A stretch of DNA of 64,000 nucleotides from Deltaproteobacteria bacterium (GTDB lineage: Bacteria > Myxococcota > Kuafuiibacteriia > Kuafuiibacteriales > Kuafuiibacteriaceae), in NCBI GenBank assembly GCA_040218735.1, contig JAVJQW010000027.1, positions 1 to 64,000 on the forward strand. The letters run 5' to 3'. Positions 28,406-42,402 of this stretch are shown here, in pieces. The notes under the pieces were generated by a model. That model was not told the DNA's origin and made no database searches. It saw nothing but the letters and a program-made list of their open reading frames with translations. The position numbers and the translations under genes were made by a program. How positions within the stretch are numbered: position 1 is the first letter of the stretch; each line of letters starts with the position of its first letter.

Positions 28406-28987
28406 ATGGCGATGGCTCGCCCCTCGAATCGATTCGAACGTCGCGCCGAGCTCGTTCGGGCACTCGAACAGGTCCTCGCGGAGCACGGCCTCGGTGGCGC
28501 TACCGTCGCGCGCGTCGCGGACGTGATGGGCTGCGCGCCCGGGCTGGTGCACCACCACTTCTCGGGTCGCGAGGAGCTGATGCGAGAGCTCGCGCGTTCG
28601 CTCGTCGAACGCTTCCGTCATCAGCTCCCGAACGAAAAGGACCCGGCGGCCTTCTTGGAGGCCTACGTCGACGCTGCCGTCGCGCTCCGGCCGTCGCGCG
28701 GTCGAACGGCGGCGCGCGCGTGGGTCGGCCTGTTCGCGGAGGCGGTGTGCACCGCGTCCGTACGCAGGGTCGTGCAACGTGCCTTGCAGACGGAGGTGCA
28801 GCGCCTGGAGTCACGCTTCGCCGCGCTGGGGGACGACCCGCAGCGCGCGAAGGAGAACGCGGCGGGGCTCGTGTCCGGAGTCGTGGGGTGCCTGGTGTTC
28901 GGCGCGATCGTCCCGAACACCGCGGTGGGGTTCGCGGCGCCTTACCTGCGCCGGGTCATCGCACGGCGATCGTCGCCGTCGTCGTGA
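28406..28987 (+). CDS. TetR family regulator (BetI-like)
   Basis: HGLGGATVARVADVMGCAPGLVHHHFSGREEL HTH. Confidence 0.9.
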   Translation: MAMARPSNRFERRAELVRALEQVLAEHGLGGATVARVADVMGCAPGLVHHHFSGREELMRELARSLVERFRHQLPNEKDPAAFLEAYVDAAVALRPSRGRTAARAWVGLFAEAVCTASVRRVVQRALQTEVQRLESRFAALGDDPQRAKENAAGLVSGVVGCLVFGAIVPNTAVGFAAPYLRRVIARRSSPSS

Positions 28988-30194
28988 GGAAGTGCTGGCC
29001 CGCGACGTACTTCCCTTCGAGGTCGTGGTACGCGAGGTTCTTCTCGTTGATCCGGAAGCGGCTCGCCTTCAGCGTCACGTAGATCGGCCCGGCCTTCGGC
29101 GCGGTGAAACGGAGGATTCCTTCGCGCGCTTCCTTCGGCTTCAGGCGGTTGTCGCTGAGTTTCTTCACCTCGGGTGACCACTGGTAGACCGACCCGATCT
29201 CGAACTGATCGCGAATGAGCGGCCCGCCGTCCGTGCGCGCTTCGAGCTCGATGCGAATGAAACGCTCCGGATCTCCCGACGGGAGCATGTGCCCCGTGTT
29301 GGCGTTGGCGTAGCGATACGTGATGCCGAGCGGCTGCGTCGGCTGGACCTCGTCGGGCGCGTTCACCCACGTGGCCTCCAGGCCCGGCGGGTAGTGCGCG
29401 CGCAGCTTCGCGAGCTCGTCCGTGAAGCGCGGGTGTTTGGGGATCAGCGAGCCCCCGAACCAGTGGCGTCGCGTCTTGCGTGGCTTTCCGTTCGTGGCGA
29501 TCGGGCGCGTCACCTCGGGCATGTGGCACGACTGACACGTCTTGCCCGCCTCGTCGTAGTCGGACGCGGCGTACTCCTGCCCGGTGTCGAACACACACGC
29601 GAGCGCGATGTGCCGCCACTCGGCCTTCGCCTGGTGGCACTGCGTGCACACGTCGACCTTCAGCAGGGACGGGTCCTTCTTCACCGGGTGCGGCGCGATG
29701 GTGTCGCCGTACGGGCCGAGGATCTGCCCGTCCTTCACGTGGCAGGTTCCGCAGGTGATCGCGTCCTTTTGGAGCGCCTCCGAGAAGCGCGGGTTGTCGA
29801 CGAAGATCGGCTTTTCGACCGCGCCGTCCTCGAGCTTCGCCACGAGACGCGGGAGCTGATTCACCATCGGCGTGTGGCAGTTGACGCACATCCAGCCGAC
29901 GCCCTGTCCGTTGGACTTCTCGAGCTCGGCCATGAACTGCGCGTCGTCCGTCCACGCGCGGGCGTGGGTGGAGATCTTCCACTCCTCGTAGATCTCGACG
30001 TGACACTTCCCGCAGGTCGCCGCCTCCAGATCCGGGAGCCCCTCCGGGACCTCGGAGTAGGCGACGGGCTGCAGGAAGCGCGGCTGCGCTGCGTAGAAGG
30101 CGACGGCGTCGTCGTAACCGAGCGAGCGCGCCTTGGACGTGGTCTTCGTACAACCCGCCGCGCCGACGACGACCAGCAGGAGGAGCGGTCTCAT
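28956..30194 (-). CDS. Multiheme (5x CxxCH) c-type cytochrome lipoprotein
   Basis: ATG 30194, lipobox AAGC; CGKCH, CVNCH, CGTCH, CTQCH, CQSCH; GHMLPSGDP. Confidence 0.9.
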   Translation of the reverse strand: MRPLLLLVVVGAAGCTKTTSKARSLGYDDAVAFYAAQPRFLQPVAYSEVPEGLPDLEAATCGKCHVEIYEEWKISTHARAWTDDAQFMAELEKSNGQGVGWMCVNCHTPMVNQLPRLVAKLEDGAVEKPIFVDNPRFSEALQKDAITCGTCHVKDGQILGPYGDTIAPHPVKKDPSLLKVDVCTQCHQAKAEWRHIALACVFDTGQEYAASDYDEAGKTCQSCHMPEVTRPIATNGKPRKTRRHWFGGSLIPKHPRFTDELAKLRAHYPPGLEATWVNAPDEVQPTQPLGITYRYANANTGHMLPSGDPERFIRIELEARTDGGPLIRDQFEIGSVYQWSPEVKKLSDNRLKPKEAREGILRFTAPKAGPIYVTLKASRFRINEKNLAYHDLEGKYVAGQHFLTTTATIAVR

Positions 30195-31165
30195 ACGACG
30201 ATCCGGTACGCCCGGTGGATCTTCTTGTTGCGGTAGTCGGAGGGGATCGTCTCCTTGGTGATCTCCTCGATCGACTTCACCTTCAGGTAGTCGAACCGCG
30301 GCTCGAACCGCTGGTGGTTCGTCGAGAAGTACACCACGCCCTTCTTGCGCATCACGCCGACGGTCGCCGCGAGGAGATCCGGGTGGTCCCGCTTGATGTC
30401 GAAGCGGTTGCGCCCGCGACCACCGCGCGTGGAGTAGGAAGGCGGGTCGACCACCGCGAGGTCGTAGCGCTGCGGCGACGCCTTCGCTTCGTCGAGCCAC
30501 TCGAGGACGTCGTGTTTCACCAGCTCGTGTTTGCGTGAGTAGAGCCCGTTGAGCTGCAAGTTGTCTTTCGCCCAGTGCAGGTAGGGGCCGGAGAGGTCGA
30601 CCGTCGTCGTGCGCTTCGCGCCGCCGAGCGCCGCGTAGCAGGTGAAGCTACCGGTGTACCCGAACAGGTTGAGGAACGACTTGTTCTTCGCTTCGTTCGC
30701 GATGAGCGCGCGGGTCTCGCGGTGATCGGCGAACAGGCCGGTGTCGACGTAGTCGTCGAGGTTCACGAGGAACTTCAGGTCACGCTCGCGGACCTCGATG
30801 CGCTTGCGCGAGCGCCCCTTGTCGTCGTAGCGGCGCCCCTTCTTCGGCTGCGTGCGGCGCGTCTTGAGGTGGATGCGTCCGGGCGCGATGCCGAGGGTGT
30901 CGGCGACGGCGCGGCCCATGCGTCCGATCCAGTCCGGCACCTTGTCCGTCTGGTCGCGCGCGTACTCCGCGACGACGAGGTGGCCTTCGTACCAGTCGAT
31001 CGCGGCGCGCACCTCCGGGATGTCCCAGTCGTACAGGCGGAAGACGCCGATGTTCTCCTGCTCGAACTTCTTCTGGAGTTTCCTCAGGTTCTTCTTCACC
31101 CGGTTCGCGAGGATCTCCGCGTGCCGGTCGACGTCTGCCTCGGTGAGTCCTGCGGGGCCTGCCAC
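30191..31165 (-). CDS. RlmK/RlmI-like SAM-dependent rRNA methyltransferase
   Basis: FRLYDWDIPE, DTGLFADHR, FLNLFGYTG, VVDPPSY. Confidence 0.9.
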   Translation of the reverse strand: MAGPAGLTEADVDRHAEILANRVKKNLRKLQKKFEQENIGVFRLYDWDIPEVRAAIDWYEGHLVVAEYARDQTDKVPDWIGRMGRAVADTLGIAPGRIHLKTRRTQPKKGRRYDDKGRSRKRIEVRERDLKFLVNLDDYVDTGLFADHRETRALIANEAKNKSFLNLFGYTGSFTCYAALGGAKRTTTVDLSGPYLHWAKDNLQLNGLYSRKHELVKHDVLEWLDEAKASPQRYDLAVVDPPSYSTRGGRGRNRFDIKRDHPDLLAATVGVMRKKGVVYFSTNHQRFEPRFDYLKVKSIEEITKETIPSDYRNKKIHRAYRIVV

Positions 31166-33132: not shown

Positions 33133-34158
33133 TTAGAGCCCCGCGTCGCGCCAGCGAAGCATTCCGCCGGCCATCGAGGCGACGTGGGCGAAGCCGGCCT
33201 CCTCCATCGTGCGCGCGGCTTTTCCGGAGCGACCGCCCGATCTGCAGATCGTGATGATGGGCGCCTGACGATCCCACGCGCCGAGGTGATCACTCAGCTC
33301 GGGGAGCGGTACGAGCTCGGTGCGCGCGATGTGGCCGAGCTCGCCTTCGTACTCGTCCTTGGTGCGGACGTCGATCAGGCGCACCCCATCCGGGACGTCG
33401 GCGATCGCGCGGATGGAGACCTCAGGGACCTCGTCGGCGGTTCGGGCGACCGACGCCCAGTCGTCGTTCGTCATCCCGCACAGGAGGTTGCGCGGGACGG
33501 CGACGTCGATGCGCTTGGGATGCGCGAGGTTCAGGTTGTTCATGATGTCCACGAACTCGTCCTGGTCGTTCTCCATCTTGAGTCGCGGGTTGTGCTGTTT
33601 CTCTTCGGCGACCGTCGTCACCGTGCGGCCCTTGTAGTCGTGGCCGGGGTGCAGCTGCGCGTCGTCCGCGAGTGTGAAGATCTTCCCGCGCACGGACTCG
33701 AAGAGTGTGTTCGCGCAGCCCTGCTGGAAGTCGGTGCGACCGCAGCCGCGGATGAGGAGCGTGTCGCCGGTGAAGGCGTGTTTCAGATCGTCGGTGATGT
33801 ACGTGACGCAGCCGTCGGTGTGGCCCGGTGTCGCGCGGACGATGAGGCGGTGCGCGCCGAAGGTGATTTCGTCGCCGTCGTCGACCTCCACGTCAGCGTT
33901 CTTCGTGCCGCCCGCGCGGGACACGACGTACTTACTGTCGCGACGCACGCGAAGGACGCCGCCGCCCGTGACGTGGTCGGCGTGAACGTGGGTCTCGAGC
34001 GTATACTTCAACGTGAGACCGAGCTCGTCGAGGATGGCCTCGTCGCGAGCGACCTGCTCCAACACGGGATCGATCAACACGGCTTCGCGCGTGTTTTCGT
34101 CGGCGAGCAGGTACGTGTAGGTAGAGGTCTCTTTGTCGAAGAGTTGACGGAACAACAT
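33133..34158 (-). CDS. ETHE1-type persulfide dioxygenase fused to rhodanese
   Basis: LFRQLFD, ETHVHADHVTG, TPGHT, GCGRTDFQ, HDYKG; rhodanese CRSGGRS. Confidence 0.93.
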   Translation of the reverse strand: MLFRQLFDKETSTYTYLLADENTREAVLIDPVLEQVARDEAILDELGLTLKYTLETHVHADHVTGGGVLRVRRDSKYVVSRAGGTKNADVEVDDGDEITFGAHRLIVRATPGHTDGCVTYITDDLKHAFTGDTLLIRGCGRTDFQQGCANTLFESVRGKIFTLADDAQLHPGHDYKGRTVTTVAEEKQHNPRLKMENDQDEFVDIMNNLNLAHPKRIDVAVPRNLLCGMTNDDWASVARTADEVPEVSIRAIADVPDGVRLIDVRTKDEYEGELGHIARTELVPLPELSDHLGAWDRQAPIITICRSGGRSGKAARTMEEAGFAHVASMAGGMLRWRDAGL

Positions 34159-34171
34159 CACCCTCGACAAG

Positions 34172-34187
34172 AGCAACCGCCGGGCCA
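34172..34187 (-). promoter_or_regulatory. Sigma54 promoter TGGCCC-N5-TTGCT
   Basis: GG-N10-GC on the minus strand just upstream of the persulfide dioxygenase. Confidence 0.8.
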
Positions 34188-34256
34188 GGTGCCGCGCTTG
34201 TGTTGTGCTGGGCTTTCCTGGCCATCCGTATTATTCGGTTTCAGCGGATCCGAAAC

Positions 34257-35219
34257 ATGCCGAAACGTCCCGACTGCCGACCGACGAACTTCCACGGGCT
34301 CCTCACCTGCGCGCCCGAGATGGAGGCGTTCTTCGCGTTGCTGCAGCGCGTCGCACGGAGTCAGGCGTCGGTCCTCGTACGCGGTGAGACGGGCACGGGC
34401 AAAGAGCTCGTCGCGCGCACGATTCACACCCTCAGCCGCCGCTCGGGCGGCCCGTTCCTCGCGGTGAACTGCGCGACGTTCACCCCCGAGCTGCTCGCGT
34501 CCGAGCTCTTCGGTCACGTGCGTGGCGCGTTCACCGGCGCGGTGCAGAACCGCCAGGGCCTCTTCGCGCTCGCCGACGGCGGGACGCTCTTCCTCGACGA
34601 GGTCGCGGAGATGCCGCTCGATCTGCAAGCGCGTTTGCTGCGTGTGCTCGAAGAAAAGGCGTTCGTCCCCGTCGGCGGGTCGGAGCGCCACGACGTCGAC
34701 GTACGTATCCTCGCCGCGACGCACAAGTCACTGCGCCGCGAGGTGCACGGCGGACGCTTCCGCGAGGACCTCATGTTCCGCATCCGCGTGGTGCCGCTGT
34801 TCGTCCCGCGCCTCACGGACCGCACCGGCGACATCGAAGCGTTGATGTGGCACTTCGTCGAAGAGCTCAACGATCGCGAGGACCGTCAGGTCGATACGGT
34901 CTCACCCGCGGCGATGACCGCGCTCCTCGGGCACGAGTGGCCGGGCAACGTGCGTGAGCTCCGCAACGTGATCGAGTACGCGTTCATCGTCGGCGACGGC
35001 CGCACGATCGAGCTCGAAGACCTCACCCCCGAGCTCCGCGGAGAGGCGCCGCCGGGCGCCGAAGACGAGGACGCATTGGACCTCAAGGAGATCGAGCGTC
35101 GGTCGATCCTCGAGGCCTTGAACAAGACGGGCGGTCGCAAGGCGGAGGCCGCGGAGCTGCTGCAGATGAGCCGCACGACGCTCTGGCGGAAGCTCAAAGA
35201 GCACCGCCTGATCGAGTGA
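34257..35219 (+). CDS. Sigma54-dependent activator (AAA+ and HTH only)
   Basis: GETGTGKE, ELFGHVRGAFTGA, FLDEV, WPGNVREL, Fis-type HTH; no N-terminal sensor domain. Confidence 0.93.
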   Translation: MPKRPDCRPTNFHGLLTCAPEMEAFFALLQRVARSQASVLVRGETGTGKELVARTIHTLSRRSGGPFLAVNCATFTPELLASELFGHVRGAFTGAVQNRQGLFALADGGTLFLDEVAEMPLDLQARLLRVLEEKAFVPVGGSERHDVDVRILAATHKSLRREVHGGRFREDLMFRIRVVPLFVPRLTDRTGDIEALMWHFVEELNDREDRQVDTVSPAAMTALLGHEWPGNVRELRNVIEYAFIVGDGRTIELEDLTPELRGEAPPGAEDEDALDLKEIERRSILEALNKTGGRKAEAAELLQMSRTTLWRKLKEHRLIE

Positions 35220-35416
35220 CTGCCATGAGACGTGCTGCTGTCCTGTTACTGCTGTTGTGCGGCTGCCCTGACCTCGAGCCGTCGAAGGTCTCGGCGACGT
35301 GCACGAAGGCGTTCGACAAGTGCAAGCTCGCGAACGGGCCGCTCGGGGTGTGTCAGGAGATCGAGTGCAAGGCCGGCGAGAAGAAGCCGTGCCTGAAGTG
35401 TGTCTCTCAGCACTGA
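35216..35416 (+). CDS. Small Cys-rich lipoprotein
   Basis: GTGA overlap (or ATG 35225); LLCGC lipobox; six further Cys; ends CVSQH. Confidence 0.7.
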   Translation: MTAMRRAAVLLLLLCGCPDLEPSKVSATCTKAFDKCKLANGPLGVCQEIECKAGEKKPCLKCVSQH

Positions 35417-36254
35417 GCGTGCTGCATCGCGGCCAACGTCCGCTCGGTGCGCGCGAGGCGACCGAGCCACGGCGCGGCGTACACGTCGGGCACGCCGCTC
35501 AGGTGTTCGCGGAGCTCGTCGACTTCCGCACCGAGCGCCGTCAGCAGCGCCGGGAGTGCGTCGCGATCCGCGGCGGAGTGCATCAAGTTCTCCAGCATCA
35601 ACGCGCGCTCGCCGAACCCATGTGACGACGACACCCCGCGCGCGAAGCGCGTGACGTCGAAGCGCGAGATCCACAACCCGCACGCCGCGGGGCGGCACAG
35701 GTGGCCTGCGATGTCGCGCAGGCTCGTCTTTCGGTCTTCGAGATCGATCGAAACCTCCGCGACCGGCGCGCCGCCGCGGTGTGGGCCGAGCGTCGCGCGG
35801 TGCTCGAGCAACACGCCGAGCAACGTCGACGCCGCAATGTCGTACGGCGCGAAACCGCGGAGCGCGTGTGCGAACAGCGGAACCCAACCGAGGAGGTGCA
35901 CGTCCAGCATCACGCGCTGCGCCGACGCTGCGCCCGCGCACGTCGACGCGAGCGCACGGAGCTGCACCGCGAGGTGATCCGGCGCCGGCCCCGTCACGTC
36001 GTACGCGAACCCGAGGCGTGCGTACGTGTCGACGACCCGCTGCGAGACCTCGCCGCCGACCACACCCTCCGGATCCACGAACACACTCTCGTGCGGCGGC
36101 ACGGCGAGCCCGAGCGCCTCGTAGTGCGCGCCGGGCTCGTGTTTCACGGCGACGCCGAGGAGCGCCGACATGCGCGCCTCGTCGTCGGCCGGGACGCCGT
36201 GCTCGAACAGATCCGCGAGCACCGAATAGGCGACCGCATAGGTAGATGACGTCG

Positions 36255-36258
<4 letters not shown>
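35407..36258 (-). CDS. TorD/DmsD family molybdoenzyme chaperone
   Basis: PPHESVF, PDHLAVQL, HLLGW; ATGA overlap with the Mo-enzyme stop. Confidence 0.85.
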
Positions 36259-39119
<2,861 letters not shown>

Positions 39120-39130
39120 TCTCGTGACTC

Positions 39131-40714
39131 CTAGCTGTTCGGGACGTCCTGCGGCGCCATCACAAAAGCGTGCTCGTAGCAGTACAGACCCACCAGCGCG
39201 AGCAGCGCGGGCAGCACCGGGACGCCGAAGTACAGCACCCCGAACGCGGCGACGTGCCCGACGAGGATGCTGCCGACCCAGAAGTAGTTCTTGTACCGAC
39301 CGTGCGTGATGTCGTGCGCGGCGCGCGCCGCAACTTCACTTGCGTGGGGCATCCCGATCTCGCCGAGGATCATCACGCCGAGGTCGATCGCGATGCTCCA
39401 CAGCGCGACGGTGCGCGCGAGCTCCGCGATCGCGCCGCTGATGGGGAAGACGTTGCCCGACGCGGCGAGGAACACTGCACCGGCCATCGTGGCCTGGATG
39501 ACGAGGTGAATCGGGAGGAGCGGGCTCTGCCAGAGATCGCGACCCTCCGCCTGGCCGAAGAGGAACGCGGTGTACGACGCGACGCCGATCGCGAGCGGCG
39601 ACGCCGCGAGCAGGATCCACGGCCGCGCCGCGGCGAGCGTGGCGTCCGGGACCATCCCGAAGAGGTTGCCCAGCTCGATACCCATCCAGCCGGTCACCAC
39701 GATTGAGAACGCGATCAGGATAAACGCGCCGCGCGTCAGCCAACTCTTCCACTGCGGCGTGAGGATGATGCGCAGGAAGCGCCCCGGCTTCTCGAGGTCA
39801 CCCACGAGCAGCACCGTCGTGATCAGCGTGAACACCACCGCAGTGGCGCTCGCGAAGACCCCGGTCGTCGCGCTCAGCTCCATGCCCATCCACAGCGCCA
39901 GCGCGAAGACCAACGCGACGCCGGCCGCGATGCCCTTGGTGACGAGGTACGCGGGCACCTGCCAGTGCCAGGGCACCTCGTGCTGCGCGTTGTACGAGAC
40001 CTGCACCATGTGCTCGGAGACGCGCCCGCCGATCTGGATCGGACCCGCCGCCGGCAGCCCCTGCGTCGAGTGCGACTGATCCGCGCGGATGTTCTCACCG
40101 TGCAGCGGCTTCACGTCGGCCCACATGAACGTCTCGGGGGTGCGCTCGGTCGCCGTCGGGTGCAGCGCGATGTCGCCGCCCTCGATGTAGAACAACTTCG
40201 GCCCCGTCCCCTGCTCGGGTTTACGGACCGTGACCTTCTCGTTGTGGACGATCTTCGAGATCTCGGAGTGAGGGTCGTCCAAGTCGCCCGCGATGATCGC
40301 GTGTTCTGGGCACACGACCACGCACGCCGGCTCGAGCCCGATGTCCGTCCGGTGCGCGCAGTAGTGACACTTCGCGGCCGTACTCGTCTCCGGGTCGATG
40401 TGGATCGCGTCGTACGGACACGCCTGCAGGCACGCCTTGCACCCGATGCAGCGACGGCTGTCGAAGTCGACGATGCCGTCCTCGCGTTGATACATCGCCG
40501 TGACCGGGCAGATGCGCACGCAAGGTGGGTTGCTACAGTGGTTGCAACGCGTGACCTGGAAGTGGCGACGGTTGTCCGGGAACGTGCCCGTCTCGGTGTA
40601 CTTGACCCAGGTCCTGTACACGCCGAGAGGGACGTCGTTCTCGCTCTTACAAGCCGTCGAGCACGCGTGGCAGCCGATACAGGATCGGTTGTCGATGACG
40701 AACCCGAAGTTCAC
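39131..40714 (-). CDS. 4Fe-4S ferredoxin subunit fused to NrfD/PsrC-type membrane anchor
   Basis: CIGCHAC..AC, CNHC..PPC..ICP, CIGCKAC..ACPY, KCHYC..PAC..VCP; W..QVPAYL, DLEKP, SWLTRG. Confidence 0.93.
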   Translation of the reverse strand: MNFGFVIDNRSCIGCHACSTACKSENDVPLGVYRTWVKYTETGTFPDNRRHFQVTRCNHCSNPPCVRICPVTAMYQREDGIVDFDSRRCIGCKACLQACPYDAIHIDPETSTAAKCHYCAHRTDIGLEPACVVVCPEHAIIAGDLDDPHSEISKIVHNEKVTVRKPEQGTGPKLFYIEGGDIALHPTATERTPETFMWADVKPLHGENIRADQSHSTQGLPAAGPIQIGGRVSEHMVQVSYNAQHEVPWHWQVPAYLVTKGIAAGVALVFALALWMGMELSATTGVFASATAVVFTLITTVLLVGDLEKPGRFLRIILTPQWKSWLTRGAFILIAFSIVVTGWMGIELGNLFGMVPDATLAAARPWILLAASPLAIGVASYTAFLFGQAEGRDLWQSPLLPIHLVIQATMAGAVFLAASGNVFPISGAIAELARTVALWSIAIDLGVMILGEIGMPHASEVAARAAHDITHGRYKNYFWVGSILVGHVAAFGVLYFGVPVLPALLALVGLYCYEHAFVMAPQDVPNS

Positions 40715-40726
40715 GGACGCGGGGAT

Positions 40727-40742
40727 AGCAAGAGGTAGGCCT
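40727..40742 (-). promoter_or_regulatory. Sigma54 promoter AGGCCT-N5-TTGCT
   Basis: GG-N10-GC 12 nt upstream of the FeS-NrfD start. Confidence 0.7.
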
Positions 40743-40914
40743 GTCCGCTAGCCGGCCTCCGGACGGTGTGCGCGCCGCAGCATGTTTCATTCGGTTTCGT
40801 GCGGTCGGAACGGATCGCGTTGCGTCGACGCCGTCCGGTGAACAACGGGACGGATTTCGGTGCGGCGACGGTGCCTTGCTGCGCTGGTACGCGCCGTGAA
40901 GTCACGACCGAGCC

Positions 40915-41340
40915 ATGGAGAACTTCACGCCCGTCACGTCGTTGGTCGGGGGCATCCTGATCGGCCTCGCGAGCTTCGGCCTCTTGGCCTTCAACGGACG
41001 CATCGCCGGTATCAGCGGCATCACCGGCGCGTTGCTCGCGCCCAAGGCCGGCGACGTCGGCTGGCGCCTCGCCTTCTTCTTCGGCCTCGTGCTCGGCGGC
41101 ATCGTCATGGGCGCGCTTCAACCGCAGTGGTTCGAGTACGGCCTCGACCGATCCGTCGCGACCGTCGCCATCGCCGGTCTCGTCGTGGGATTCGGGACGC
41201 GCCTCGGGAGCGGGTGCACGAGCGGCCACGGCGTATGCGGAATCAGTCGCCTCTCGGTCCGGTCGATCGTCGCCACGGTGACGTTCATGGCGACCGGCGC
41301 CATCACCGTCTTCCTGTTCCGAACGTGGGGTGCATCGTGA
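40915..41340 (+). CDS. YeeE/YedE family sulfur-compound transporter subunit
   Basis: [20 protein letters not shown]. Confidence 0.92.
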
Positions 41341-41783
41341 AAGAGATCATCGTCAGTCTGGTGTCCGGCTTCACCTTCGCGGTGGGCCTCGCCGTCTCCG
41401 GCATGACGCAGCCGACCAAGGTCGTCGGCTTCCTCGACTTCCTCGGCGACTGGGATCCGAGCCTCGCGTTCGTCATGGGCGGCGCGATCGCCGTGTACCT
41501 CCCGCTGTTCCGGTGGGTCCGCAACCGCGAGCGCGCGTTCCTCGGCGCCAAGTTCCTGATCCCCACGCGCAAGGACCTCTCCCCGCGGCTCATCGCGGGC
41601 TCCGCGCTGTTCGGCATCGGCTGGGGACTCGCGGGCTTCTGTCCGGGCCCCGCGATCGTCGCCGCATCCTCGCGCATGTCGATGGGGCTGATCTTCTTCG
41701 TCGCGATGGTCACCGGCATGCTCTTGTTCCGCGCGTTCGAATTTGCTTCGCAGCCGGCCCCCGCTCCTGTGAAGTCCTCCTGA
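41337..41783 (+). CDS. YeeE/YedE family sulfur-compound transporter subunit
   Basis: GTGA overlap; [25 protein letters not shown]. Confidence 0.92.
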
Positions 41784-41784
41784 G

Positions 41785-42402
41785 ATGTCCTGGCTCGTCG
41801 CTCCGCTCTACGACCGCATCATGCGTGGGACGGAGGCGGCGTGTCTGGCCGCGTGGCGCGCGGAGCTCCTCGCCGACCTCGAAGGAGACGTCCTGGAGAT
41901 CGGCGCGGGCACCGGCGCGAACATCGCGCACTACGGTCCACGCGTGGAGCGCGTGCGTTACTTCGAACCAGACCCGCACATGGCGCGTCAGCTGAAGACG
42001 AAGCTCGCCGCGGATCCGAAACGCGGTGCGTCGGACGAAGTCGTCGAGGACCTCGCCGCCGTCGCCGACGAAAGCCACGACGCCGTCGTCTCCACGCTCG
42101 TGCTCTGCACCGTCCCCGATCCGACGGCGACGCTCGCCCACGTGCGGCGGGTGCTCGCGCCGCACGGCCGGTTCGTATTCCTCGAACACGTCGCGGCGCA
42201 CGAGCACCCCGAGCGCCTCGCGTGGCAGCGCCGCCTCGAGCCGCTGTGGAAGCGGGTCGCGGGCGGTTGCCACCTCACCCGCGAGACGGCGCAGACGATC
42301 GCGGACGCCGGGTTCACGCTGGAGCAGCTGCAGCGCGAATCGATGCGTAAGGCCGTACCCTGGGTCCGCCCCACGGTGCGCGGCGTCGCCATCGTCCGTT
42401 AG
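41785..42402 (+). CDS. Class I SAM methyltransferase (METTL7/TMT1-like)
   Basis: VLEIGAGTGAN, DAVVSTLVLCTV, FLEHV, GGCHLTR. Confidence 0.88.
   Translation: MSWLVAPLYDRIMRGTEAACLAAWRAELLADLEGDVLEIGAGTGANIAHYGPRVERVRYFEPDPHMARQLKTKLAADPKRGASDEVVEDLAAVADESHDAVVSTLVLCTVPDPTATLAHVRRVLAPHGRFVFLEHVAAHEHPERLAWQRRLEPLWKRVAGGCHLTRETAQTIADAGFTLEQLQRESMRKAVPWVRPTVRGVAIVR

Follow-up and report, generated by a model that had tools for sequence, protein, structure and literature searches.

Positions 33,133 to 42,402 of a 64,000-nucleotide stretch of Deltaproteobacteria bacterium DNA (assembly GCA_040218735.1, contig JAVJQW010000027.1; the whole stretch is called the window below) carry a gene set that probably allows this myxobacterium-like organism to convert toxic reactive sulfur first to sulfite and from there to sulfate. 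We propose, with a probability of about 0.55, that these genes form a sigma-54-dependent set in which persulfide is oxidised to sulfite by a persulfide dioxygenase (PDO) fused to a rhodanese, and sulfite to sulfate at an inward-facing molybdenum (Mo) site, with the electrons passing to quinone and the sulfate leaving via SulP permeases. The proposal starts from what the genes are, how the enzyme is oriented in the membrane, which family it belongs to, which neighbours recur and where promoters match, and from these we infer the substrate of the Mo enzyme and the direction of its electron flow. The enzyme family itself has already been described; the new element would be its control by a sigma-54 activator that has no sensor domain.

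In the proposed pathway, the PDO-rhodanese would oxidise persulfide sulfur to sulfite in the cytoplasm, with its rhodanese domain shuttling sulfane sulfur. A two-subunit enzyme with a Mo-bis(pyranopterin guanine dinucleotide) cofactor (Mo-bisPGD), which is of the polysulfide-reductase-like complex 3 (PSRLC3) type and similar to SoeABC, would then oxidise the sulfite to sulfate at a cysteine-ligated Mo, and the electrons would travel over five iron-sulfur (FeS) clusters to a quinone site in an inverted, fused NrfD-type anchor. A NarJ/TorD-like chaperone would mature the catalytic subunit, which lacks a twin-arginine translocation (Tat) signal, and a pair of YeeE and DUF6691 membrane proteins may carry a sulfur compound across the membrane. 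The sensor-less activator, with reactive sulfur as the proposed inducer, would switch on the pdo gene and, probably, the Mo operon from sites located about 80 nt upstream of the -24/-12 promoters. The sulfate would be exported by SulP permeases, whose genes lie in other parts of the genome and likewise follow sigma-54-like promoters.

The dioxygenase and the molybdoenzyme

The genes of the window were identified by searches for Pfam and NCBIfam domains. An earlier reading of the DNA from its letters alone (the sequence-only reading) had described the region as a sigma-54-controlled sulfur island around an uncharacterised, cytoplasm-facing molybdoenzyme, and all genes named there exist at about the positions that it gave, each with domain matches. 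The minus-strand gene at 33133-34158 is predicted to code for a persulfide dioxygenase of the ETHE1-type metallo-beta-lactamase (MBL) fold with one C-terminal rhodanese domain (Lactamase_B 6e-17, Rhodanese 1.5e-11), and contains both the HxHxDH metal motif (HVHADH at residue 57) and the catalytic cysteine loop of the rhodanese (CRSGGRS at residue 305). Two further copies were seen elsewhere in the genome, a PDO-rhodanese of 54% identity at C9:571074-572114, where no sigma-54 site was found, and a PDO-like gene of 33% identity at C56:131381-132175, which has a 10/12 sigma-54 site 49 nt upstream.

The molybdoenzyme is encoded by two minus-strand genes, one at 36255-39119 for the Mo/W-bisPGD catalytic subunit of 954 residues (Molybdop_Fe4S4, Molybdopterin and Molydop_binding domains), which is present as a single copy in the genome, and one at 39131-40714 for a fusion of an FeS protein with an NrfD-type anchor of 527 residues (Fer4_11 2.4e-23, NrfD 2e-22). 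The catalytic subunit has an N-terminal [4Fe-4S] motif of the form CxxCxxxC...C. Its Cys222 lies in the sequence HTNICS, which had been singled out before as the likely Mo ligand, and aligns with Cys173 of Thermus PsrA, which we take to be the Mo ligand of that enzyme, and with the corresponding cysteine of ArrA; the pattern H[ST]NxC[SA] is present in all 94 of the 94 family rows. The claim that the subunit has no twin-arginine leader held as well, since it shows no RR in its first 60 residues and no hydrophobic segment. The FeS subunit likewise contains no RR in its first 40 residues and no hydrophobic segment there. Among the 94 family rows, an RRx## pattern occurs in six, none of which continues into a signal-like h-region, and three of these six represent a conserved RRYxL before the FeS motif.

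A ferredoxin domain for four clusters, with four cysteine motifs, takes up residues 1 to about 190 of the fusion protein and is followed by eight hydrophobic peaks, which correspond to an NrfD/PsrC-type anchor with no extra helix at the junction. The loops at 305-325 and 455-489 are rich in K and R and fit a topology with the N-terminus inside. Because both subunits are signal-less and the FeS domain is fused to this eight-helix anchor, the molybdoenzyme must, judging from its sequence, face the cytoplasm, as the sequence-only reading had it. Both termini of PsrC are described as lying on the P side, beside PsrB (PMC8076601), and the fusion therefore indicates that the anchor is inverted relative to PsrC. 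An inverted orientation of SoeC is expected in the same review (PMC8076601); the fusion provides proof at the sequence level that an NrfD-type anchor can sit inverted, as was previously assumed for SoeC.

The gene for the NarJ/TorD-family assembly chaperone (35407-36258, minus strand; Nitrate_red_del 2.8e-11) shares an ATGA overlap with the gene for the catalytic subunit, which suggests translational coupling, and it sits downstream of the Mo gene also in the loci L024-L030, L034 and L130. Close homologues of the catalytic subunit share the first 60 or so residues (...TN(V/A)AGxxLPxF...HPDGRxSxYPP), which may, by analogy with NarG and NarJ, be a tail for the chaperone.

Family membership and distribution

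By its scores, the catalytic subunit cannot be placed in any curated family. In NCBIfam it matches PhsA best, with 209 bits against a cut-off of 694; TtrA gives 103 against 1750, and the FeS part reaches 199 bits against the cut-off of 416 for TtrB. The nearest solved structure is PsrA (2vpw, 2.6e-39), which is matched by the N-terminal third only. For SoeA, NCBIfam holds no model, and none was present among the PDB matches.

Close homologues numbered at least 8000, all scored candidates being matches, and the best 120 were 69-78% identical. A scan with one genome per species yielded at least 600 matching stretches, and the two-gene form is present in more than 10 phyla at 53-76% identity. The best 80 of these were taken as loci from outside the phylum; they are 53-70% identical to the Mo subunit of the window, belong to Chloroflexota, Bacteroidota, Acidobacteriota, Gemmatimonadota, Planctomycetota, Actinomycetota, Nitrospinota and other phyla. 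In 72 of them, the fused FeS-NrfD gene immediately precedes the Mo gene. Thermomicrobium roseum, Rhodococcus jostii RHA1 (on plasmid pRHL3) and several haloarchaea are among the named carriers. The distribution within the own phylum is patchy, with matches at E<=1e-100 in 13 of 201 Myxococcota genomes, three of which hold only Tat-bearing paralogues. These paralogues (L031, L032 and L033 in genomes G068, G141 and G073) have about 1115 residues and 43-47% identity, retain the YPPxExW motif, have their FeS and NrfD partners either fused or separate, and represent an exported sister group in Myxococcota.

A family phylogeny, proposed earlier as a check on the enzyme, was calculated with FastTree from 110 rows, with supports that are local only and several outgroup rows on long branches. 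The Tat-less fused family forms one clade of 95 rows (support 98) that stands apart from the Psr/Phs-like rows, separated from them by a branch of 0.93. Its neighbours in the tree are the paralogues with a Tat signal and a set of rows from Actinobacteria and Acidobacteria. The protein of the window falls into a clade of 17 rows (support 100) with members from Myxococcota, Anaerolineae, one metagenome-assembled genome of Planctomycetota and one green sulfur genome; because this clade mixes several phyla, the gene appears to have moved between them.

Green sulfur genomes were recognised by the FMO protein alone, which was present in 98 of 401 genomes in the phylum of a carrier from Bacteroidia. 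Four of five FMO-bearing genomes tested carry the same two-gene unit, with the fused gene directly upstream and within the 95-row clade. Three of the orthologues (G303, G231 and G331) are 52-53% identical over their full length and 58-60% over the N-terminal two thirds, and the fourth (G221) is 70-73% identical; the best matches in the fifth genome reached only 31-33%.

In a search for SoeA, plasmid matches in Azoarcus, Rhodobacter xanthinilyticus, Paraburkholderia and Sulfurovum turned out to be other enzymes, and in the puf-bearing genomes (4 of 301 in the phylum sample of G203) the best long match was ActB of alternative complex III. The relatives in Azoarcus sp. KH32C (plasmid pAZKH, L115) and on a Sulfurovum mangrovi plasmid (L116) are 31-37% identical and have separate subunits in the order FeS, NrfD, Mo, TorD; the Azoarcus Mo subunit starts with a Tat-like RRTFLK, and its operon adjoins a sigma-54 two-component pair and a PhnD/SsuA-type binding protein. 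Locus L143, on contig C2 of a genome with pufL and pufM from this phylum sample (G873), is an alternative complex III operon with a Tat-bearing ActB followed by ActC and cytochrome genes.

Comparison with described sulfur enzymes

The unit resembles PSRLC3, a complex going back to Frigaard & Bryant 2008 and Gregersen et al. 2011 (via PMC9324843, PMC6338057 and PMC5473276). In the passages that mention it, green sulfur bacteria are said to carry "2 genes encoding PSRLC3" (PMC5473276), and the complex is called an alternative sulfite-oxidizing system (PMC6338057) or inferred to be a sulfite oxidase (PMC9324843). Both units consist of two genes, one for a catalytic subunit that resembles PsrA and one for a subunit in which the FeS and membrane parts are fused, and both of these subunits are signal-less; the identity was assigned from this literature description (two genes, green sulfur bacteria) and not from an accession. 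The earlier label of an uncharacterised enzyme thus stands for its biochemistry but not for its name, as the orthologues of green sulfur bacteria fit the PSRLC3 of the literature. Unlike there, the host of the unit described here is a non-phototrophic member of the Myxococcota, the partner is PDO instead of Dsr, and the window adds the NarJ/TorD-like chaperone, the conserved N-terminal tail of about 60 residues and sigma-54 control. Under the names SoeBC or PsrBC, no description of the fused FeS-NrfD family was found in the open-access literature.

The second relevant system is the sulfite:quinone oxidoreductase SoeABC, known from Allochromatium vinosum (Dahl et al. 2013; its SoeA is cited as D3RNN8 in PMC9324843) and Aquifex aeolicus (Boughanemi et al. 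2020; both via PMC8076601, PMC8232776 and PMC12345210). In a review that paraphrases Dahl 2013, its genes are called "universally present" among the purple and the green sulfur bacteria (PMC8232776). The "bSreA/SoeA" radiation of Wells et al. 2023 is described as cytoplasmic, Cys-ligated and unusually conserved, with about 16 sequences left after clustering at 50% (PMC10100899). SoeABC and the enzyme of the window have in common a cytoplasm-facing, membrane-bound Mo-bisPGD enzyme with a cysteine ligand, an FeS relay, an NrfD-type anchor and the same proposed reaction. SoeABC consists of three separate subunits, whereas B and C are fused here and the gene order is BC-A-chaperone. The periplasmic reductases Psr, Phs and Ttr differ from the enzyme of the window, which has no Tat signal and scores under their curated cut-offs.

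The sigma-54 activator and the predicted promoters

The plus-strand gene at 34257-35219 codes for a bacterial enhancer-binding protein (bEBP) of 320 residues (Sigma54_activat 1.9e-65, HTH_8 5.8e-15) with an AAA+ core that begins at about residue 19, a GAFTGA motif at residue 90 and a C-terminal HTH_8 domain, and with no N-terminal sensor domain. Its frame is closed by a stop 19 codons upstream of the ATG, which limits it to a maximum of 339 codons. Equally short orthologues of 57-88% identity are present in eight other Myxococcota genomes; they adjoin PDO, SulP, SQR (sulfide:quinone oxidoreductase) or YeeE genes in five of the seven loci fetched and also in locus L034 from the same genus. No description of a sensor-domain-less sigma-54 activator of sulfur genes was found in the open-access literature. 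The closest described system is FisR, a sigma-54 activator of sulfide-oxidation genes in Cupriavidus and Acinetobacter baumannii, which has an N-terminal regulatory domain (PMC7315123). Like FisR, the activator of the window is a sigma-54 AAA+ protein with HTH_8, is divergent from a pdo operon carrying a sigma-54 promoter, and has orthologues beside pdo, sqr, sulP and yeeE genes; unlike FisR, it contains no regulatory domain, and in this protein as in its eight orthologues the AAA+ core is preceded by a stretch of about 18 residues. A FisR-like cysteine sensor at the N-terminus was considered and dropped, as the N-terminal cysteines are not conserved.

The genome contains rpoN, and a -24/-12 promoter, TGGCCCGGCGGTTGCT (34172-34187, minus strand), lies 14 nt before the pdo ATG with a score of 11/12. 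It is the only site scoring at least 10 on either strand of the window and is conserved at identical spacing in L034, where the stretch between promoter and ATG has diverged, so that sigma-54 control of pdo is well supported at the sequence level. The Mo operon is preceded by a weak sigma-54-like element, AGGCCTACCTCTTGCT (40727-40742, minus strand), which scores 8/12 and lies at a distance of 13 nt from the GTG start codon of the FeS-NrfD gene; the sigma-54 control claimed by the sequence-only reading is thus well supported for pdo, and the promoter match of the Mo operon in the window is weak. Two candidate activator sites were noted. The first (34233-34256) consists of the 10-mer GAAACCGAAT (minus strand, 34242-34233) overlapping an inverted repeat GTTTC-N9-GAAAC, and the second (40784-40798) of GTTTC-N5-GTTTC containing the same 10-mer (40798-40789). 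The 10-mer, of which the 11.6-Mb genome holds 7 copies against 4.7 expected, starts 56 or 57 nt upstream of the GG-N10-GC element before both minus-strand units. The Mo-operon element is supported because this 10-mer is shared at the same offset and because the orthologous Mo operons in the Myxococcota loci L026 and L027 have better upstream sites (9-10/12). A common site motif across lineages was not proposed, as other lineages show different inverted repeats. With both promoters of the window, transcription is predicted to begin 2-3 nt upstream of the start codon, which would give near-leaderless transcripts.

The loci of the bEBP orthologues hold further sigma-54 sites of 9-11/12, and those scoring at least 10/12 amount to nine in about 8 kb-strand of intergenic DNA, compared to 0.019 per kb-strand in the genome; one match, in L171, was discounted for being too close to a SulP start. 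Outside the window, the SulP permease genes at C26:82788-84272 and C52:46596-48227 have upstream sigma-54-like sites of 9/12 and 10/12, respectively, and the C26 copy also has GAAACCGAAG just upstream. Both may possibly be further members of the regulon.

These data also bear on the explanation that the region is a chance mosaic of modules (pdo with the bEBP gene, the Mo operon, and yeeE/DUF6691 with a methyltransferase gene) that are not co-regulated. A mosaic would account for the weak promoter match of the Mo operon, for the fact that the bEBP gene stands beside a Mo operon only in the same-genus L034 and the contig-edge L100 among 89 loci, and for the location of bEBP orthologue and Mo operon on different contigs in four genomes (G093, G103, G022 and G098). 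It would not account for the 10-mer at the same offset before both minus-strand units, nor for L026 and L027, where pdo stands next to the Mo operon in divergent orientation and the DNA between them has sigma-54-like sites of 9-10/12 in each direction. Moreover, five of the seven Myxococcota genomes with a bEBP of at least 60% identity hold the enzyme (G108, G103, G093, G022 and G098; the exceptions are G063 and G034). We therefore regard a chance mosaic as very unlikely.

Sulfur genes around the enzyme and the probable substrate

To describe the context of the enzyme, all open reading frames (ORFs) around 89 loci, within a span of -8/+6 kb, were clustered without prior labels and the recurrent clusters annotated afterwards. 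Among the 80 loci from other phyla, a SulP permease is encoded near the enzyme in 20 and an MBL protein with rhodanese in 17, while SQR-like, DUF1641, YeeE-type, DUF6691 and LplA-like genes occur in five each, and 27 loci have at least one of SulP, PDO-rhodanese, SQR, YeeE or DUF6691 nearby. The co-occurrence with pdo, another check suggested earlier, is thus recurrent but only partial (17 of 80 outside the phylum). The linkage with PDO requires at least 13 changes on the tree and, because of this, does not represent one inherited block. Within Myxococcota, pdo adjoins the Mo operon in L026, L027 and L034 (55-77% identity) and more weakly in L030.

The yeeE/DUF6691 pair of the window is located on the plus strand beside the Mo operon. 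The sequence-only reading had counted two YeeE/YedE genes; the first (40915-41340) indeed codes for a half-size membrane protein of this family (Sulf_transp 38.6 bits, cut-off 27), and the second (41337-41783), whose start overlaps the yeeE stop, for a DUF6691 membrane protein (3e-44) as its YeeE-type partner. The pair is also found directly upstream of the Mo operon in L025 of the Myxococcota, where the YeeE-type gene (49% identity) directly precedes the FeS-NrfD gene, and in L173, where the YeeE-type gene (57% identity) lies near a bEBP orthologue. The combination recalls the BigR/CstR-controlled yeeE-yedE-pdo2 operons and CstB-type operons for persulfide detoxification (PMC7315123), which likewise contain PDO, with or without rhodanese, and a split YeeE/YedE-type transporter for the clearance of persulfide. 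Those operons are controlled by repressors and have no sulfite-removing enzyme, whereas the window adds a quinone-linked Mo enzyme and an activator.

Individual loci show further sulfur genes. In the green sulfur genome G221, lipoate genes of the sHdr route lie next to the unit, namely LipS1, a LipS2-like gene and two genes for lipoate ligases. On pRHL3 of strain RHA1 it follows DsrE and TusA genes and stands among ArsR regulators and three MBL hydrolases, and in Thermomicrobium roseum it is preceded by a CsoR-like regulator, so that two cultured carriers have regulators of the CsoR-like and ArsR-like families, which are known to sense persulfide, beside the unit. PDO is said to produce sulfite in the cytoplasm (PMC7315123), as is Dsr (PMC8232776), and the same is stated for sHdr systems. 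The common thread of the neighbours is therefore intracellular sulfite production together with regulator families that sense persulfide, and the set across phyla supports cytoplasmic sulfite oxidation. Of the two functions named in the sequence-only reading, the cross-phylum context thus favours the oxidation of PDO-derived sulfite, and polysulfide or thiosulfate reduction less so.

The second of these functions would make the enzyme a cytoplasmic reductase, in which quinol reduces thiosulfate, polysulfide or tetrathionate imported by YeeE/DUF6691, for example releasing sulfide and sulfite for assimilation or detoxification. Its nearest solved and curated relatives are indeed reductases (PsrA 2vpw, PhsA and TtrB, as given above), the B-C-A gene order resembles that of ttrBCA, and proteins of the YeeE family are named thiosulfate transporters in NCBIfam (TsuA; a weak match). 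However, every score is far under the family cut-offs and the long branch sets the Psr/Phs rows apart in the tree. Quinol-driven thiosulfate reduction is strongly uphill by redox potentials, and an inward-facing enzyme is unable to use the membrane potential as Phs does. With the recurrent SulP, PDO, Dsr-type and sHdr-type neighbours also fitting sulfite removal better than sulfite production, we consider a reductase unlikely.

Several points weigh against the proposed sulfite-oxidising pathway and its control. The sulfite role is proposed from gene neighbourhood and a literature hypothesis, and the likeness to SoeABC from published descriptions; in a KEGG-based survey, SoeC is listed only for Proteobacteria, Clostridia and Aquificae (PMC8076601). 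Of the 80 loci outside the phylum, 53 had no sulfur-linked neighbour within the -8/+6 kb span, and the positive loci are not independent because many of them come from related Saprospiraceae. The absence of SQR, noted before for the window, extends to the whole 11.6-Mb assembly (96.5% complete), in which two queries gave no tblastn match at E<=1e-8. On the regulatory side, the bEBP and its eight orthologues have no conserved N-terminal cysteine, the 8/12 score of AGGCCTACCTCTTGCT is not significant alone because the window contains 90 sites of this kind, L034 retains only 7 of the 10 positions of the 10-mer, and a Shine-Dalgarno-like GAGGG before the pdo ATG conflicts with a start site 3 nt upstream.

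The 53 loci without a sulfur-linked neighbour would also agree with an enzyme that does not act on inorganic sulfur but, for example, on selenite, tellurite, arsenite, formate or an organosulfur compound, in which case the sulfur genes would be neighbours for another reason. Some database names say "formate dehydrogenase", the methyltransferase of the window has weak arsenite-methyltransferase-like matches, and substrate shifts are described as frequent in the superfamily (PMC10100899). Against this, the sequence is very tightly conserved, with identities of 53-76% in more than 10 phyla, as would be expected if all members used one substrate. The informative neighbours are always sulfur genes, the adjacent regulators come from persulfide-sensor families, and the methyltransferase is not conserved with the unit. 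A substrate of this kind is thus improbable, and we retain sulfite oxidation as the preferred function.

Implications

Extending the proposal beyond the window, we tentatively suggest, at somewhat less than even odds, that wherever bacteria and some haloarchaea generate intracellular sulfite via PDO, sHdr or Dsr, their main cytoplasmic sulfite:quinone oxidoreductase is the PSRLC3-type enzyme, and that it is run by a sensor-less sigma-54 activator in Myxococcota. If this is true, surveys for SoeABC, SorAB or SUOX would miss the fused two-subunit enzyme, which would explain the scarcity of "direct" sulfite oxidisers reported for PDO-rich communities, e.g., in marine sediments (PMC12345210). The Myxococcota activator would then detect reactive sulfur via a new route, either a trans-acting partner or its own AAA+ core, and represents a tractable case for studying the response of a sigma-54 activator to reactive sulfur. 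Should the sulfite role alone be true, one widespread and conserved family would cover sulfite removal in many PDO-bearing heterotrophs without a recognised sulfite oxidase, and the reading of sulfur-oxidation potential from genomes and metagenomes would change. Cultured carriers are available in Rhodococcus jostii RHA1 (pRHL3 genes RHA1_RS43840/43835), Thermomicrobium roseum (TRD_RS12035/12030) and green sulfur bacteria.

Remaining genes of the window

The last gene of the region (41785-42402, plus strand) codes for a class I S-adenosylmethionine-dependent methyltransferase (Methyltransf_11 2.7e-15). The sequence-only reading had included it in the island, but its linkage is not conserved: neither the related loci nor the rest of the genome gave a homologue, and its membership of the gene unit is doubtful. 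A short gene of 66 codons for a Cys-rich lipoprotein (35216-35416, plus strand), whose GTG start overlaps the bEBP stop, had been overlooked in the first gene list. The lipoprotein-like peptide contains eight cysteines and is 73% identical to its counterpart in L034, which has the same position and the same cysteines; the gene was not found in loci other than L034.

Because the G+C content of the window is 65-72%, the ORF lists are full of spurious frames. The G+C fraction is 0.65-0.67 over 36-42 kb and about 0.70 on both sides. The limits set for the region earlier were correct, as the flanks carry other types of genes, namely those for Ser/Thr kinases, a multihaem cytochrome and unknown proteins. 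The gene for the multihaem c-type cytochrome (28956-30500, minus strand), with matches to Cytochrome_C7/C554 and an MtrC-like domain, is located 2.6 kb from the island.

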